Shown here piece by piece: positions 50,447-64,000 of a stretch of DNA of 64,000 nucleotides (position 1 is the first letter of the stretch; each line of letters starts with the position of its first letter). The DNA lies in the sequence record KP869113; one strand, written 5' to 3'. This DNA comes from Escherichia coli O157 typing phage 15. The notes under the pieces are model-generated. The model did not search any database. It had not been told where the DNA came from and saw only the letters and a list, made by a program, of their open reading frames with translations. The translations under genes and the position numbers were made by a program.

Positions 50447-51232
50447 TTAGTTCTTTGCGTCTAAGAAGGTAACTTCTGGTGAAGAGAAGACCGTCTCGAT
50501 ATCCTCATCAGTTCTTGCATAAATATATGTATCTGCATCACTGCCAAATGTTACGGCTATCCTGTGATTGCTCTTCGACAGGTGGGTAACTAGAGCGTTA
50601 CTTAGAGACATCTTCTCAACCGGAGGGTTACTTTGATGTATCTTACCTTTTCTTCGTCTGAAGAGGGTAACTGTATCATCTTTGAACGTTACTACACCTG
50701 CAAAGTATTCTGGTTCACAGTAGTTATTCCAACCTGAGCGTAACTTGTGGTACATCTCTCCTTCGTAGACATACAGATAAACATCTACACTCTTCATCAC
50801 CTGATTAATGATAACTGTGACGGCTTGAGGGTCAAGTCCACCGATACCTGCACCAATCATAGGTAAACCAACCTTCTTCAACTGATTAACTTCACAGTAT
50901 CTGTTAAGCTGTTTCAAAGATGACTCTAAAGCACTGTATCGGGCATCTTTACCAGTCTTAAGCTGAGTGTAAAGGTTAGCTATACGACCTTGTTTTAAAC
51001 GTGCTACAGAGAAATTACCCAGTAAATTTTCACAGGGTTTGTGTCCTATACCACCTGCATACAGATAAACTTCTGTATCGGTCTCATATGCTTTTGGGTA
51101 AAGTTTAGAAATCTTGTCAGCGATACCTGCACCCATTAAATTCATACAGTTGCAACCGTGACCGATGATGTCAAACTTACCTTTATCAAATGCGGCAAAG
51201 ATATCACCATTAATTATTTTTACAATACCCAT
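50447..51232 (-). CDS. Macro-domain protein (TARG1/OARD1-like ADP-ribose-processing family), 261 aa
   Basis: N-terminal NGDIF...IIGHGCNCMNLMGAGIA and internal GLPMIGAGIGGL resemble the GDLF...HCIS.D..MGAGIA and P.IGCGLD motifs of TARG1-type macrodomains (from memory). Confidence 0.55.
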   Translation of the reverse strand: MGIVKIINGDIFAAFDKGKFDIIGHGCNCMNLMGAGIADKISKLYPKAYETDTEVYLYAGGIGHKPCENLLGNFSVARLKQGRIANLYTQLKTGKDARYSALESSLKQLNRYCEVNQLKKVGLPMIGAGIGGLDPQAVTVIINQVMKSVDVYLYVYEGEMYHKLRSGWNNYCEPEYFAGVVTFKDDTVTLFRRRKGKIHQSNPPVEKMSLSNALVTHLSKSNHRIAVTFGSDADTYIYARTDEDIETVFSSPEVTFLDAKN

Positions 51233-58974: not shown

Positions 58975-59312
58975 GTCCAGTTAATGAGTATGCCATCGAA
59001 ACCTTTTGCTAAAGGTACACCCTCATGTTCATAAAATTCAGGATTAACTTCGAATCCACGATTTTCAATATACTCTATCATGTATTTCATTACAAAGCTA
59101 ATCTCTTCGTAGTCATCTGGGTCTCTGCCAAAGAACTGTTCTATGACAAACATACCTTCTTTTGTAGCAAATTGGCAGTGGTGATTGTAGATACCTTCAC
59201 AAAACTTTTCAAACTTTTCTTTACCGAGAACTTTAAGGATGTCTGTATAGGCAACTTGTAAGTATTTCGGTTGTACAGGTTTATTGTTAAACCATATGGA
59301 AAGGTTGTCCAT
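58968..59312 (-). CDS. Hypothetical protein (114 aa)
   Basis: Track ORF. Confidence 0.4.
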   Translation of the reverse strand: MDNLSIWFNNKPVQPKYLQVAYTDILKVLGKEKFEKFCEGIYNHHCQFATKEGMFVIEQFFGRDPDDYEEISFVMKYMIEYIENRGFEVNPEFYEHEGVPLAKGFDGILINWTW

Positions 59313-59365
59313 AGCATTCTCCAGAAATTAAAAAGGCTCCCGTAGGAGCCTCTTATCATATACTT

Positions 59366-61147
59366 TTAAAGCTGCTTGTCAATATTATTTCGAATATCAC
59401 CAAGAGTTGTGTAACCGTACTGCTCAGAGTCGCTAAAGACTAAACGTAAAGCACAAGCTGGATGTTCAAGTGCATCTGCAAAGCTCTGGAATCCATAGCC
59501 ATCTACAGCTTTCAAATTCTCACCATCCCACATAGGTGCTACACCACCAAAGGCAGATTTCTTAACACCACTATCTGTTTTAGGGTCTTTTGCAAGCATA
59601 ATCTCTTTGCCACCAATGCTTGCAAGAGTTGCTTTGACAGCAAATGCAAAGGTGTCACGAGTCATGTACTGGTAAGTGTAAGAGCCTACACCAAACACCA
59701 CGTTAGAGCTTGCAAACCCCATTTCATACAGACGCTTCAGGATTTCGTTTGCACGTTCCAACGTGATAGAGTCGCCATAGATAAGTCCAATGTGCTCATC
59801 CAGTACCTTAAAACCTTTAGAGTTGATAGTTCCTCCAAAGATGTTATACAAGGTCTTAATAGCTCCATCAATCTCTGCTACAGGGCGTGTTACAACGTTT
59901 GCAGAACCAACCATATAAGCGTTCTTCAACATCACTGTATCAGCAACTTCAAAGTCTTCTCTGTCAACAACCATTTCGTAGCCTTCTGACAGTAGCCATC
60001 CAGCAATACCATAGTTGATGTTTTCAAGCTTCATGTTAAGAACAGCATTCAACATTGTGTCACTGACTTCCAGCTTGCTTAGGTGCTCGTAATAAGCCTT
60101 CTTAGCACATTCTAAGTGGATTGCTTTATAACCTGTGACAATATGTACAGGGTCTCCAGAGTCAGGGCGAATTACCAGTTTGCCATCACGTTCCATAATT
60201 TCTTTACGAAGTGCTGGTAAGATTTCTGACACAGTTCTCCAGAAGTTATAAGTATCTGAAACAATACTTGCAATACCTGTTGGGTAAGTTTCTGTTAAGA
60301 AACGACGGAAGGTTTGTAACTCACCTTTAAAGCGTCTTTCTTCTTCAATCAACTCATTACCACCTTCCCAAGCAATGTTTGCACACATTACAGAGTGCTC
60401 AGTGGCTGGTACAGAGCTACCAATATCAGAGATTGGGTAGGACTGTCCATAGATTCGTTTAGCCGTGTATACAGCAGGGAAGCTATCAGTCCCTTTAAAG
60501 CTGGTTAAGTGACCTACAGCGTTAAATGCGTCATCAGTAAAGCCGGACATACCACGCATAGCAAAATCATGGCACTGATAAGGTAAATGTAAGTCATTGT
60601 CACAAGTAAGGTCAGCCCACTTCTTACAGATGCGTTTGTAATGCAATGCAATAGTTGCAATGGTGCAAGCCTTCCAAATTTCAGCAGAGAAAGCATCTTC
60701 CAGATAACCTGCTACCCAATGAAAACCTGAAACAGTGTTCTGAAAGACAATCATCGGGACACGCATTGGAACAACTGTGCCTTCTTCTACAGCGTATACT
60801 TCAACTGGTAGATAACCTAAGTCGTGAAGTGCTTCCCAATGCTCTCGACCGATAGCATCTTTACCCAGAACACCATTCATGACTTCTAAGATTTCATCAA
60901 TGGCTTCTTTTTTATCACGTTCAAAGAAAGTGGCATTCCAGTGGTCTATCAAGTAATCTTTAACAAAACGTTGAATACCAAAAGCCACTACACCGTCAAT
61001 TGCTAAAGGGCTGTTAAACCATTTATCACTACGTGGTGTCAGGTTGAACATCAAGTATTCTGTTGCACTAGGATACTGGTAAACATGACCAGATTTGTAA
61101 GCATCTGCATTTAAACCTGCTGGTACTGCATAAAGTGATTTAGTCAT
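59366..61147 (-). CDS. Nicotinamide phosphoribosyltransferase family protein (Nampt/NadV-like; candidate Namat)
   Basis: Conserved Nampt motifs DAYKSGH, HDFAMRG, SFKGTDS, VPATEHSV, VSDTYN, IRPDSGDP; 593 aa with C-terminal extension relative to about 490-aa NadV. Confidence 0.85.
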   Translation of the reverse strand: MTKSLYAVPAGLNADAYKSGHVYQYPSATEYLMFNLTPRSDKWFNSPLAIDGVVAFGIQRFVKDYLIDHWNATFFERDKKEAIDEILEVMNGVLGKDAIGREHWEALHDLGYLPVEVYAVEEGTVVPMRVPMIVFQNTVSGFHWVAGYLEDAFSAEIWKACTIATIALHYKRICKKWADLTCDNDLHLPYQCHDFAMRGMSGFTDDAFNAVGHLTSFKGTDSFPAVYTAKRIYGQSYPISDIGSSVPATEHSVMCANIAWEGGNELIEEERRFKGELQTFRRFLTETYPTGIASIVSDTYNFWRTVSEILPALRKEIMERDGKLVIRPDSGDPVHIVTGYKAIHLECAKKAYYEHLSKLEVSDTMLNAVLNMKLENINYGIAGWLLSEGYEMVVDREDFEVADTVMLKNAYMVGSANVVTRPVAEIDGAIKTLYNIFGGTINSKGFKVLDEHIGLIYGDSITLERANEILKRLYEMGFASSNVVFGVGSYTYQYMTRDTFAFAVKATLASIGGKEIMLAKDPKTDSGVKKSAFGGVAPMWDGENLKAVDGYGFQSFADALEHPACALRLVFSDSEQYGYTTLGDIRNNIDKQL

Positions 61148-61192
61148 CTTTTAATCTCTCTCAAAATGGGGCTTTTAAGCCCCTATAAAGTT

Positions 61193-62089
61193 TCAATCAA
61201 GGTTTGCTACAGTAACTTGACCATAATGTGTTAAGCCACGGTCTTTAGCTTCCCCTAAAGAGTTTGTAGTGTAGATATGGTCAATACCATTGTCAAGAAG
61301 GTTTTCAACATCTTTAGAGAAGATACCATGTGTTACATAGAGTTCCACACGTTTTGTACCTGCTTCACGGAGATGCTTAGCTGCTTCTATGAAGGTTCGA
61401 CCACCATCACAGATATCATCCAGAATCATGACGGTTTTATCTGTCAAATCAACATCATCAAGGATTCGCATACCAGTAATTTCACCAGTCTTAAGGTTAC
61501 GCACCTTAGACATTGTGATATATGGTTTATCCACCTCTTTAGCGGTCTCTGCAACCTTCTTAGCAGCACCTGCATCTGGGGCTACTAAGTAATCAACCAG
61601 TGGGTCATTTGCATAGTGGACTGCAATCTCCTTTTGAGGAATACTCTGGAAGCAGTTAAACAGGTTATCTGGTACATAGCTGTGAGGGTCAACTGCACAG
61701 ACTGCGCCAAATCCCATTGCATTAATCTGTTTAGCAAAAACCTTTAAAGCTGCTGCGTCACCTTTAAACATGTGACGGTCATATCGTGCATTTGGTAAGT
61801 AGTAAAAGATGACAGTCTTTAAAGCATAATCATGAGGAATTAAATCATCAATTGCTTCTTTAGCAAGTGCCACAGCAAACAATGTGTCCTTGTCATAACC
61901 TTTTACAATCATAATCACATTGTTGATGGATGATGCTGCATAAGCAGTAAAATCAACAAACTCTGGCGAAAAGTGTCCACCAATCTCACCAGAAGGGAAT
62001 TGGACGATGTTAAACTCTTCTTCATGAGTCCCTTTAGTTGGTGAATGAACTGTAACACGGATAGATGTTTTCATAGTTTTCTCTCTCAA
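61193..62089 (-). CDS. Ribose-phosphate pyrophosphokinase family protein (Prs-like; candidate ADP-ribose pyrophosphokinase Adps)
   Basis: PRPP-binding loop VMILDDICDGGRT and overall about 300-aa Prs-like architecture; stop overlaps upstream gene start. Confidence 0.7.
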   Translation of the reverse strand: MREKTMKTSIRVTVHSPTKGTHEEEFNIVQFPSGEIGGHFSPEFVDFTAYAASSINNVIMIVKGYDKDTLFAVALAKEAIDDLIPHDYALKTVIFYYLPNARYDRHMFKGDAAALKVFAKQINAMGFGAVCAVDPHSYVPDNLFNCFQSIPQKEIAVHYANDPLVDYLVAPDAGAAKKVAETAKEVDKPYITMSKVRNLKTGEITGMRILDDVDLTDKTVMILDDICDGGRTFIEAAKHLREAGTKRVELYVTHGIFSKDVENLLDNGIDHIYTTNSLGEAKDRGLTHYGQVTVANLD

Positions 62090-62364
62090 TCAAAAGTTAC
62101 GTTTGTTACTGCCATTGCAGATTTGCATTTTGCAGGGTCTACAACGTGATAAAGTACACTACAGTTACCTGTGCTGTCTGGTACAGGTTTAACCCATTGT
62201 TGCTTGACAGTTGGTTCGCCTAAGTCTTTGTAAGAACCATCTGTAAAGTTGTTTACCATCTCAAGTGCAATTGGCTCTGGAACATGACCACGTATCATGT
62301 ACATTTCACAACCATTACCTCCTTCACTGACTAATGGTAAAATCTCCCACTTTTCTTTAGTCAT
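62086..62364 (-). CDS. Hypothetical protein (92 aa) co-transcribed with the Prs-like/Nampt-like pair
   Basis: ORF coupled at both ends (overlapping start/stop codons). Confidence 0.4.
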   Translation of the reverse strand: MTKEKWEILPLVSEGGNGCEMYMIRGHVPEPIALEMVNNFTDGSYKDLGEPTVKQQWVKPVPDSTGNCSVLYHVVDPAKCKSAMAVTNVTFD

Positions 62365-62872
62365 TATAAGTTGCCCTATAAACTGTCTCGAACTTCAACA
62401 GGAGAGATATTGCCAAATCTGTATAGTTGTTGTCAAGCACATCTGGCATATTATTTTTGATATATTTCTCTTGCTCTTCATAGGTCATCTTAGGGATACT
62501 TAGGAGGCTATCTCCTTGCTTCTGGTTATCAGCTTTAGTTTGGATAAACCAGTTTGCACAGTGATGTTCACCACCTTTTGTAACAGGTTTGTGATGACCT
62601 AATGTAAATATTTGCTTACCCGTATACCTGCAAAGATTGTTCAGTGTTGCAATGGTGTTCTTCACAACACACCATTCATACAGGTTATCTATTGTGTAGT
62701 GTGGGTAATAACGGACAAGTGCTCTTTCACGTAAGTTACCACGATTCCAAAGAACCATGTGATTAGAATTTGAAGGGTCATATTTGTGGGAGTCTATAAA
62801 CTCTTGACGCTCATCAAAGCTGAGTCTTAGAACTGACATTGCAACCGAACGTTTCAGGTTTGACAGATACAT
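62357..62872 (-). CDS. HNH endonuclease (171 aa)
   Basis: HNH motif GHHKPVTKGGEHHCANWFIQTKADNQKQGD. Confidence 0.65.
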   Translation of the reverse strand: MYLSNLKRSVAMSVLRLSFDERQEFIDSHKYDPSNSNHMVLWNRGNLRERALVRYYPHYTIDNLYEWCVVKNTIATLNNLCRYTGKQIFTLGHHKPVTKGGEHHCANWFIQTKADNQKQGDSLLSIPKMTYEEQEKYIKNNMPDVLDNNYTDLAISLLLKFETVYRATYND

Positions 62873-62923
62873 TTTACCTCCAAAATAAAAAGGGAACCTT
62901 TACAGTCCCCTTATAGTATCTGT

Positions 62924-63244
62924 TTACTGAGCTACTTTCAAGATTCTTGTGAATGGAATTTCACTTTCTTCCATTAACTCTTTAGTTTCTTTGGTAACTT
63001 TCACAAAGTTATCTAGGCAGATAATCTTCTTATCTTTCTTACTATAGGTTAATTTAACCTTTTCAATATCTTTCTCAGAGCTTTTCTCTTCATTGAAGAG
63101 TTTTACAGCCTCTTTGAATGGGAGATATGAGCCATCATTATCACTAATGAATCCTGTACCACAATAGTAGGAGTTATGTTCTCTAGCCATAAACTGGCAC
63201 AGTAAGAAAATCTGTAATTTACGAGTGTTATAAACTTTGCTCAT
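62924..63244 (-). CDS. Hypothetical protein (106 aa)
   Basis: Track ORF. Confidence 0.4.
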   Translation of the reverse strand: MSKVYNTRKLQIFLLCQFMAREHNSYYCGTGFISDNDGSYLPFKEAVKLFNEEKSSEKDIEKVKLTYSKKDKKIICLDNFVKVTKETKELMEESEIPFTRILKVAQ

Positions 63245-63246
63245 GA

Positions 63247-63510
63247 TTATTTAGCCTTCTTATTACGTTTACGGTTACGGTTACGAGCTTTCTTAGCTGC
63301 GCGTTTAATTGCTGCTGCACCAGTCGGACGATGGGCTTGCTTCTTACCACCTTTGCCACGGCCTACATAGATGCTTTTCATAATCTCATTAGCCAGTTTC
63401 TCATCCATCTTGAAGTTCTGCATAAGATGAGTCACATCAACACCAGTGAGCATACCTAATGAAGCTAGTGCTGCTTTCACTTTTGATTTAAAACTATTCC
63501 AGAGTCCCAT
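63247..63510 (-). CDS. Small protein with highly basic C-terminus (87 aa)
   Basis: C-terminal KRAAKKARNRNRKRNKKAK tail, nucleic-acid-binding character. Confidence 0.4.
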   Translation of the reverse strand: MGLWNSFKSKVKAALASLGMLTGVDVTHLMQNFKMDEKLANEIMKSIYVGRGKGGKKQAHRPTGAAAIKRAAKKARNRNRKRNKKAK

Positions 63511-63634
63511 TTCATATCTCTCTCAATCTTTTCACAAAATGTTTTAAGTTCTTCTTCAGTGATACCAACGGTTAAGTTTGTTCTGTAGAACATTGTAAAG
63601 TGGCTTTTACCGATAACCTACTTTATAACGAGAT

Positions 63635-64000
63635 TTACTCTGCTCTCCACTGACAATCACCTTGCCATCCGTACTCTTTTCTCCAGAGGTTTTGGTTATC
63701 TGAACCACGATACGGTTTAACTGTTGGTTTAGATGAATCATACTTACCATCAATCACCACGTCAACATATTTCATCACATCAAGGTGAATTTTTTCATGT
63801 AACTGAAAACCTGTCCAGAGCCAGATAGATTTTTCTGGGTAAACGGTTTTAATACGTTTGCATATGTTGGTAACCTCTTGAATATTTCTATCATCTAGAG
63901 GTTCTCCACCAAGTATTGACAGCCCACTGATGGCATTATCATCCATTAACTTAATGATGCCATAAAGGTTTGCATAAGTGAACTCTTTACCAGCATTAAA
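63635..64000 (-). CDS. nrdG: Anaerobic ribonucleotide reductase activating protein NrdG, C-terminal part (5' end beyond window)
   Basis: Matches NrdG C-terminal motifs LSILGGEPL, IWLWTGF, VVIDGKY, YRGSDNQ; N-terminal radical-SAM Cys cluster would lie past position 64000. Confidence 0.7.
   Translation of the reverse strand, partial: FNAGKEFTYANLYGIIKLMDDNAISGLSILGGEPLDDRNIQEVTNICKRIKTVYPEKSIWLWTGFQLHEKIHLDVMKYVDVVIDGKYDSSKPTVKPYRGSDNQNLWRKEYGWQGDCQWRAE

Follow-up and report, generated by a model that had tools for sequence, protein, structure and literature searches.

NAD+ reconstitution pathway 1 (NARP1; NAD+, nicotinamide adenine dinucleotide) came to light when genes 79-80 were deleted from the Felixounavirus Bas63, which without them is sensitive to the defence system SIR2-HerA (Osterman et al., bioRxiv 10.1101/2024.02.11.579819). 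ADP-ribose pyrophosphate (ADPR-PP) built up solely when wild type Bas63 was combined with the defence system, the rescue was independent of the host genes pncC and nadR, and deletions that sensitise the phage to NAD+-depleting defence were made for Bas63 and for phage Fado. In the homologs from SPbetaL1, Adps pyrophosphorylates ADP-ribose (ADPR) and Namat joins nicotinamide to ADPR-PP, yielding NAD+ (bioRxiv 10.1101/2024.02.11.579819). Here we analyzed a stretch of 64,000 nucleotides from Escherichia coli O157 typing phage 15 (sequence record KP869113), referred to as the window, in which an earlier note made from the sequence alone had proposed that positions 59366-62872 encode a Nampt-like and Prs-like pair forming a module of this kind.

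The region consists of four tightly packed open reading frames (ORFs), all on the minus strand, and the Nampt-like and Prs-like genes are indeed adjacent and co-directional:

62872..62357, minus strand: HNH-like ORF, 171 amino acids (aa), PHROG 3500, first gene in the unit
62364..62086, minus strand: 92-aa ORF, PHROG 4726, an orphan
62074 (ATG)..61193, minus strand: Adps (ADP-ribose pyrophosphate synthetase, Prs-like), 293 aa
62089 (TTG), minus strand: alternative start of Adps, the ORF being open that far, 298 aa
61147..59366, minus strand: Namat (nicotinamide ADP-ribose transferase, Nampt-like), 593 aa

The corresponding locus of Bas63 (JohannRWettstein, MZ501086) contains the same genes in the same order and with the same lengths, from the HNH-like gene up to and including rIIA. 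Namat is identical to Bas63 gp80 (bas63_0080) at 583 of 593 positions (98%), the 92-aa ORF to its counterpart at 90 of 92 (98%) and the HNH-like protein to bas63_0077 at 152 of 170 (89%). Adps is just 77% identical to gp79 (bas63_0079; 227/293), owing to an N-terminal part of ~155 aa that is of a second allele class. Positions 59000-63300 of the window match the Felixounavirus Escherichia typing phage 1 (KP869100/NC_041979) with 100% identity and share 92-97% identity with over 200 FelixO1-like phages from the hosts Escherichia, Salmonella, Shigella and Citrobacter. Both genes of typing phage 1 appear in the tables of Osterman et al.: KP869100_00095 is found in Table S2 (Namat homologs), marked 'Adps-associated', and KP869100_00096 in Table S1 (Prs/Adps homologs), marked 'Namat within 10 genes: Yes'. 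NARP1 in this locus is already known in the sense that the gene pair was catalogued in the discovery paper, and the earlier note therefore correctly recognized a system that had been listed before.

We assign the locus to NARP1, as the operon of a Felixounavirus encoding Adps and Namat, with a probability of roughly 0.93. The assignment, which agrees with the central proposal of the earlier note, is based on orthology and synteny with Bas63, on the Osterman tables and on the conservation of the catalytic and specificity residues that mark Namat versus Nampt and Adps. In the proposed pathway, a host defence system (SIR2-HerA/Nezha, DSR, type I Thoeris, SEFIR or Kongming, for example) would cleave NAD+ to ADPR and nicotinamide, Adps would use ATP to pyrophosphorylate the distal ribose of ADPR to ADPR-PP, and Namat would displace the pyrophosphate with nicotinamide, giving NAD+ directly. 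NAD+ would be rebuilt in this way without nicotinamide mononucleotide (NMN) and without host NadR or PncC.

All motifs by which the pair had been picked out were found in the translated genes: DAYKSGH (aa 15-21), HDFAMRG (aa 193-199), SFKGTDS (aa 216-222), VPATEHSV (aa 246-253) and IRPDSGDP (aa 326-333) in Namat, and VMILDDICDGGRT (aa 215-227) in Adps. Namat matches PHROG 448 (E=1.7e-202) and NCBIfam PRK09198 (469 bits, cutoff 405). A phmmer search against the PDB returned 9w5w/9w5x (E=5.7e-128), 9ke8 (6e-104) and 7yqo (8e-52), with mammalian Nampt chains at about 7e-41 or weaker; here, 9w5w/9w5x are taken to be the SPbetaL1 Namat structures, as the numbering fits, and the mammalian Nampt chains are taken to be those that the PDB names 'Nicotinamide phosphoribosyltransferase' and that agree with the mammalian entries to which the literature refers. 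The Namat core, in SPbetaL1 numbering, comprises Asp13', Tyr15', Phe189, Arg192, Asp215, the catalytic His, Arg306, Asp308 and Gly360/Asp361 (PMC12774641). In the alignment, these residues are present in the window protein as D15, Y17, F195, R198, D221, H251, R327, D329 and G458/D459.

Specificity residues were compared next to the core. The clamp helix (SCH) of Namat carries the motif GSX-phi1-X-phi2-X-phi3-TRD, in which the aromatic X residues stack on the adenine and which Nampt lacks; in the clamp loop between beta1 and beta2 (SCL), the third residue is Arg, Lys or Tyr, and if it is Lys or Tyr, the following residue does the stacking (PMC12774641). The SCH motif is present in the window protein as GSYTYQYMTRD (aa 488-498). 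Its SCL, TPRSDKWFNSPLAIDG (aa 37-52), has K42-W43 opposite R40-V41 of SPbetaL1 and is identical to the SCL of Bas63, which serves as the example for the Lys type in the structure paper (PMC12774641); the loop fits this type, with Trp as the predicted stacking residue. None of the ten differences from Bas63 Namat lies at a catalytic or clamp site. Preference for ADPR-PP over phosphoribosyl pyrophosphate (PRPP) and direct synthesis of NAD+ have been shown for SPbetaL1 Namat alone (PMC12774641), and by analogy the window Namat would likewise prefer ADPR-PP and make NAD+ directly.

The clamp also bears on a module of the NARP2 type, in which the Nampt-like enzyme would make NMN and a phage Nmnat would adenylate it to NAD+. 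NARP2 Nampt proteins are homologs of Namat, but the adenine-clamp motif is present here, the gene next door encodes Adps, the Osterman table gives 'Adps-associated' and not 'Nmnat-associated', and no Nmnat-type domain was detected in a scan that was limited to the neighbouring ORFs and did not extend to the whole genome. This reading carries next to no probability. NARP3, which combines PnuC and NadR, was rejected, its proteins being unrelated to those of the locus.

For the Prs-like protein, the placement in the Adps clade was taken from the Osterman table of Namat-linked Prs/Adps proteins and from profile scores. The protein matches PHROG 619 (E=2.4e-96) and, with 120.5 bits, the subfamily model TIGR01251 (cutoff 113); for Namat and Adps alike, membership in the Nampt and Prs families goes far beyond chance. 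Its scores fall far below every equivalog-level Prs model (102.9 bits versus a cutoff of 296, 61.7 versus 438, and others), and the profile matches stop at about 290-296 of 309-316, at the C-terminus of the protein. Judged from its sequence, Adps would not be a bona fide Prs, the C-terminal alpha11-alpha12 regulatory module apparently having been lost. By sequence, Namat is far nearer to the solved Namat chains than to the mammalian Nampt chains, and Adps falls below the equivalog Prs models.

Since the PDB copy searched contained no solved Adps structure (the top match was an archaeal Prs), active site residues were mapped via the ICP1 sequence from Osterman's table. Adps was aligned with the ICP1 and SPbetaL1 sequences of this table using MAFFT and is ~30% identical to either. 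The ICP1 enzyme has the catalytic Lys185, an acceptor groove formed by Arg87, His121, Asp161, Asp212, Asp213 and Asp216, and a remodelled pyrophosphate (PP) loop, Cys215-Ser220 with the sequence CDGAAS, which is conserved among Adps homologs (PMC13586617). K190 of the window protein (in SKVRNLKTGEI) aligns with K185 of ICP1 and K162 of SPbetaL1 as the catalytic Lys on the beta-hairpin, for which mutagenesis has been described; in the Adps of phage Gary the catalytic lysine is K192 (bioRxiv 10.64898/2026.01.28.702374). The acceptor residues are present as R97, H131, D167, D219, D220 and D223, and the PP loop reads CDGGRT (aa 222-227), inside DDICDGGRT; K190, the acceptor residues and the DDICDGGRT loop are all identical in Bas63. 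DDICDG is common to the window Adps, ICP1 Adps and a Pseudomonas phage Adps, with the close variant DDLCDG in phage eugene, and archaeal Prs structures carry DDIISTGGT at this place. The PP loop is not uniform across the Adps family, since the biochemically validated SPbetaL1 Adps has DDLSSFGGT. Pyrophosphorylation of ADPR, and not of ribose-5-phosphate, has been shown for the SPbetaL1 and ICP1 enzymes and was deduced for Bas63 from ADPR-PP in vivo (bioRxiv 10.1101/2024.02.11.579819; PMC13586617).

These data can be held against conventional salvage, in which the Prs-like enzyme would convert ribose-5-phosphate to PRPP, the Nampt-like enzyme would combine PRPP and nicotinamide to NMN, and host NadR/PncC would finish NAD+. 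The names given in Pfam, NCBIfam and PHROG and in almost every GenBank record (prs and nadV/Nampt) agree with this route, as do the score above the TIGR01251 cutoff and the ability of SPbetaL1 Namat to make NMN from PRPP in vitro; the window proteins, however, carry the Namat-specific adenine clamp and score far below all equivalog Prs models, respectively. SPbetaL1 Adps gave no PRPP-type product in a canonical Prs assay, yet pyrophosphorylated ADPR, and SPbetaL1 Namat given both substrates made NAD+ as its sole product. Moreover, the Bas63 operon, 98% and 77% identical in its two proteins, provides counter-defence independently of pncC and nadR, with ADPR-PP detected in infected cells. Conventional salvage is thus already largely refuted for the ortholog, and we consider it highly improbable here.

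Several points weigh against the assignment to NARP1. The deletion phenotype and the ADPR-PP measurement come from Bas63 and the enzymology from the SPbetaL1 and ICP1 proteins, so that their application to the window is by analogy. Bas63 proteins failed to purify (bioRxiv 10.1101/2024.02.11.579819), and for this reason the enzymology stems solely from homologs with ~30% (Adps) and roughly 50% (Namat) identity. Adps aa 1-180 are only ~57-73% identical to Bas63, reflecting the different N-terminal allele, and this divergent region includes the part that gives adenine contacts in ICP1 Adps. In ICP1, the adenine of ADPR is contacted by Phe18', Arg87 and Phe92 (PMC13586617). The contact Arg is conserved in the window protein; the equivalents of F18 and F92 are not cleanly aligned in the divergent N-terminal region, MAFFT placing F18 opposite E18, and F92 opposite M102 with F103 adjacent. 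Judging by the FSDxxE/FPSGE motif, the F18 equivalent is probably F26 in QFPSGE. Finally, SPbetaL1 Namat keeps some PRPP-to-NMN activity in vitro (PMC12774641; bioRxiv 10.1101/2024.02.11.579819), which is why a minor contribution of conventional salvage is possible. By analogy, we infer that the window proteins, including the second-class Adps N-terminal allele, act as their orthologs and homologs do.

The allele class of Adps was delimited by comparison with Bas63, which, like FelixO1, carries the other class:

61600..62074, minus strand: mosaic 5' part of adps (~470 nucleotides (nt), N-terminal ~155 aa), second allele class compared with Bas63/FelixO1

Within this patch, nucleotide identity to Bas63 is 60-82%, with 60-66% in the most divergent part, versus 92-98% in the flanks. 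The identities found by tblastn with the Adps N-terminal part are bimodal: 151 records show at least 90%, 97 fall at 60-80% and only 4 at 80-90%. Codon differences amount to 51 synonymous and 53 non-synonymous ones. Given the near parity of synonymous and non-synonymous changes and the sharp patch boundaries, recombination appears to have brought in an old second allele for the N-terminal domain, and positive selection as the cause of the divergence was rejected on the same two observations. Selection exerted by host factors directed at Adps could lie behind the two allele classes.

The earlier note had also put the Nampt-like protein at about 100 aa longer than canonical NadV, and a difference of this size is confirmed against the solved Namat chains, which have 491-496 aa compared with 593 aa here. 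The excess is made up of a ~78-aa insertion (aa 351-427), located after the ribose-binding IRPDSGDP loop and ahead of the helix that follows, of 15 aa at ~258-272 and of 4 aa in the beta1-beta2 loop. The largest piece maps as follows:

59867..60097, minus strand: Namat inserted domain, aa ~351-427 (modelled as aa 338-430)

The ~78-aa insertion is confined to Ounavirinae-type genomes (253 phage records). Long-form Namat proteins span 43-99% identity, and among 22 such sequences the insertion is much more variable than the core. Modelled alone with the 22-sequence alignment, the inserted domain is predicted to be a compact alpha/beta fold (predicted local distance difference test 94.9, predicted template modelling score 0.84), and no relative was found in the PDB. 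Bas63 Namat carries the same insertion, which is therefore compatible with NARP1 function. The word 'insertion' is absent from the main text of the Namat structure paper (PMC12774641). The domain may serve in oligomerisation, channel substrate from Adps or help to evade a host inhibitor. As a separate observation, the N-terminal part of Namat shares 46-48% identity with a 496-aa 'nicotinate phosphoribosyltransferase' encoded on the chromosomes of Klebsiella, Cronobacter, Kosakonia, Phytobacter and Erwinia; these genes may represent bacterial NARP1, copies carried by prophages or true NadV.

Upstream of adps, the HNH-like gene and the 92-aa ORF had been described as translationally coupled, which holds in part. 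The two overlap each other by 8 nt (ATGACTAA), in line with this description; the 92-aa ORF and adps overlap, by 4 nt, just with the TTG start, whereas from the 92-aa stop codon to the adps ATG there is an 11-nt purine-rich spacer. The ATG start (MKTSIRV...) is the one used in the Bas63 record and in the Osterman table. The HNH label itself turned out to be weak. The protein matches PHROG 3500, of unknown function, with E=1.7e-92 and PHROG 2214 (HNH) over aa 58-124 with E=7.5e-6; no Pfam HNH match was obtained even at E<=10, and the PDB contained no sequence relative. In favour of the label, the core GH[HY]xPxxKGGxH...NW[FI]IQTxxDN (H93...N107...N116) is invariant in homologs at 38-45% identity.

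Whether these two genes extend the module beyond Adps and Namat, as accessories to NARP1 comparable to Adpp and RyDEP, was weighed on their organization and distribution. Both lie inside the hairpin-bounded unit described below and are tightly packed by the overlap and spacer just given, the order HNH-like gene, small ORF, adps, namat is kept even in a distant member of the Ounavirinae, Erwinia phage phiEa21-4, and other NARP1 operons carry accessory genes (Adpp or RyDEP) inside the operon. The Bas63 phenotype, however, came from deleting genes 79-80 alone. In a homolog search of phages the 92-aa ORF was found in Ounavirinae alone, and in phiEa21-4 its place (L008:5479-5775) is taken by an unrelated 98-aa ORF with no detectable similarity to the 92-aa ORF (62086-62364). 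Different Ounavirinae genera carry unrelated small ORFs at this point, between the HNH-like gene and adps, and the slot resembles a place for variable cargo in an otherwise conserved unit. For the 92-aa protein, searches revealed neither a Macro, RyR or Nudix domain nor any other domain or fold related to NAD/ADPR; its structural model is of moderate confidence and gave no informative fold match. Neither upstream protein matches the PADLOC models. An accessory role is in our judgement improbable, and the part in the pathway that the earlier note had implied for both genes finds no support beyond lineage-specific synteny. They may be considered passengers of the lineage rather than components of the pathway.

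A link of the HNH-like gene to NARP1 across phage lineages was rejected. Homologs with ~40% identity occur in phAPEC8-like phages with genomes of 145-150 kb, for example Escherichia phage VivaForever (L007:5983-6498), where the gene sits among hypothetical genes near a helicase, away from NARP1. The HNH-like gene is probably not part of NARP1. A further observation concerns the 92-aa ORF: BFVD entry A0A653G1G4 (Escherichia phage VpaE1_ev78, 261 aa) is 100% identical to it over 90 columns. The length of this entry, ~171 and 92 aa combined, suggests a frameshift fusion or a merge during annotation.

Outside the four genes, one further protein of the window resembles a known NARP1 component:

50447..51232, minus strand: 261-aa Macro-domain protein, ortholog of bas63_0095 'putative phosphatase', Pfam Macro 32.3 bits (cutoff 22)

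The gene is located ~8 kb downstream of the NARP1 unit on the same strand. Adpp is the validated ADPR-1''-phosphate phosphatase of NARP1-AP from phage Gary (bioRxiv 10.64898/2026.01.28.702374). Over its first ~160 aa, the window protein can be aligned from end to end with Gary Adpp at 27% identity (E=2e-13), including the essential His (H24 in Gary, H25 here), and an end-to-end alignment with the Macro protein of the PN09 NARP1 operon shows 34% identity (E=1e-17). The additional C-terminal region of ~100 aa has no Pfam match. Members of the Macro family are present in 2,847 phage records, T4-like phages among them; T4 itself is not known to carry NARP1. A PDB sequence search ranked OARD1/TARG1 above Poa1p. 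The likeness to Adpp is real, and because the family is broad in phages and OARD1/TARG1 outrank Poa1p, the idea that this Macro protein is linked specifically to NARP1 was kept only as a hypothesis, in which the protein could be a distal Adpp-like accessory that dephosphorylates ADPR-1''-phosphate. No Macro domain was found in any of the four genes of the unit, which therefore lacks the in-operon arrangement of NARP1-AP. If true, a split NARP1-AP acting 'in trans' could protect this large phage group against aRES-type defence. That NARP1 of the Ounavirinae is more elaborate than the published two-gene core, given the Namat inserted domain, the distal Macro protein and the Adps alleles, is a tentative proposal that we regard as rather unlikely.

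The boundaries of the unit and the spacer between its two NARP1 genes were examined with pattern scans and fold predictions:

62890..62912, minus strand: terminator-like hairpin followed by a T-run, found by pattern scan, predicted fold -14.1 kcal/mol
61168..61183, minus strand: conserved GC-rich 6-bp hairpin GGGGCT-TAAA-AGCCCC in the adps-namat spacer, from sequence and predicted fold
59331..59354, minus strand: terminator-like hairpin of 10 bp followed by TTTTTAATTT, found by pattern scan, predicted fold -16.6 kcal/mol

The first hairpin lies directly 5' of the GGAGG ribosome-binding site and the ATG of the HNH-like gene and is likely the 5' boundary of the transcription unit, and the last one comes right after the namat stop codon and is likely its 3' boundary. 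The HNH-like gene, the 92-aa ORF, adps and namat appear to be transcribed as one unit between the two. Downstream of the unit, rIIA follows after three small ORFs. The adps-namat spacer is 45 nt long, with both genes on the same strand, and its hairpin is followed by ATTTTG and a GAGAGAG ribosome-binding site. This hairpin is kept in Bas63 with one loop difference and was not called by the terminator scan of the region; it may act as an attenuator between the two genes or play a part in RNA stability or processing there.

Some features were observed around the unit. The best sigma70-like promoter match of the region, TTGACA-16-TATGAT (59355-59382, minus strand, 11/12), overlaps the last namat codons, with the terminator hairpin directly after it and the next small ORFs further downstream. 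Upstream of the unit, positions 63300-63699 form a second patch diverging from Bas63, with 54-79% identity and gaps or indels, among small ORFs beside nrdG. In addition, three records attributed to phages of other hosts, MG065668 and MG065664 (Campylobacter phages A126 and A132) and GU169904 (Staphylococcus phage SA1), are 97-99% identical to the locus, and these are probably mislabelled or contaminated assemblies and not real host jumps.

GenBank and RefSeq records for the phage and ~250 relatives still name the genes prs and nadV/NAPRTase, names that hide the counter-defence function. Annotation as NARP1 is relevant to host-range prediction and to the choice of therapeutic Felixounaviruses against hosts carrying SIR2, TIR, DSR or Thoeris. 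As a discovery the locus has little weight, NARP1 having been defined in this phage genus, and the practical value lies in annotation. The orphan domain inserted in Namat, the two Adps N-terminal alleles and the distal Adpp-like Macro protein are small, testable extensions.

Compared with known systems, canonical Prs and Nampt (NadV) share the folds, the pyrophosphoryl transfer from ATP and the displacement of pyrophosphate by nicotinamide with the window pair. They differ in acceptor (ribose-5-phosphate instead of ADPR) and donor (PRPP instead of ADPR-PP), the adenine clamp is found in Namat only, and Adps falls below the equivalog thresholds for Prs. NARP2 (Nampt and Nmnat, Vibrio phage KVP40) and NARP3 (PnuC-like and NadR-like, Bas30; PMC13464706) likewise restore NAD+ under NAD+-depleting immunity, but use other substrates and partners; the locus has no Nmnat, PnuC or NadR partner, and Adps is adjacent. 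NARP1-AP (Adps-Adpp-Namat, Vibrio phage Gary; bioRxiv 10.64898/2026.01.28.702374) has the same core enzymes, and a Macro protein with the essential His is encoded in the window as well. Here, however, the Macro gene lies outside the operon, ~8 kb away, its product has an extra C-terminal region of ~100 aa, and its family is common in T4-like phages. The window phage is not among the phages in the table of the NARP1-AP paper (bioRxiv 10.64898/2026.01.28.702374).

The systems of SPbetaL1 (Namat crystal structures, PMC12774641) and ICP1 (PMC13586617) are closer, sharing the adps-namat pair, the Namat core, the SCH, the logic of the SCL, and the catalytic Lys and acceptor Arg/His/Asp of Adps; the DDICDG loop is shared with ICP1. 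SPbetaL1 Namat is without the ~78-aa domain and the 15-aa insertion and has Arg40 in the SCL in place of the Lys-Trp of the window, and SPbetaL1 Adps has the PP loop DDLSSFGGT versus DDICDGGRT. NARP1 of Bas63, from the same genus Felixounavirus, agrees with the locus in the Namat inserted domain, in identical catalytic and clamp residues and in the intergenic hairpin, and differs in the N-terminal ~155 aa of Adps, which here are of the second allele class.

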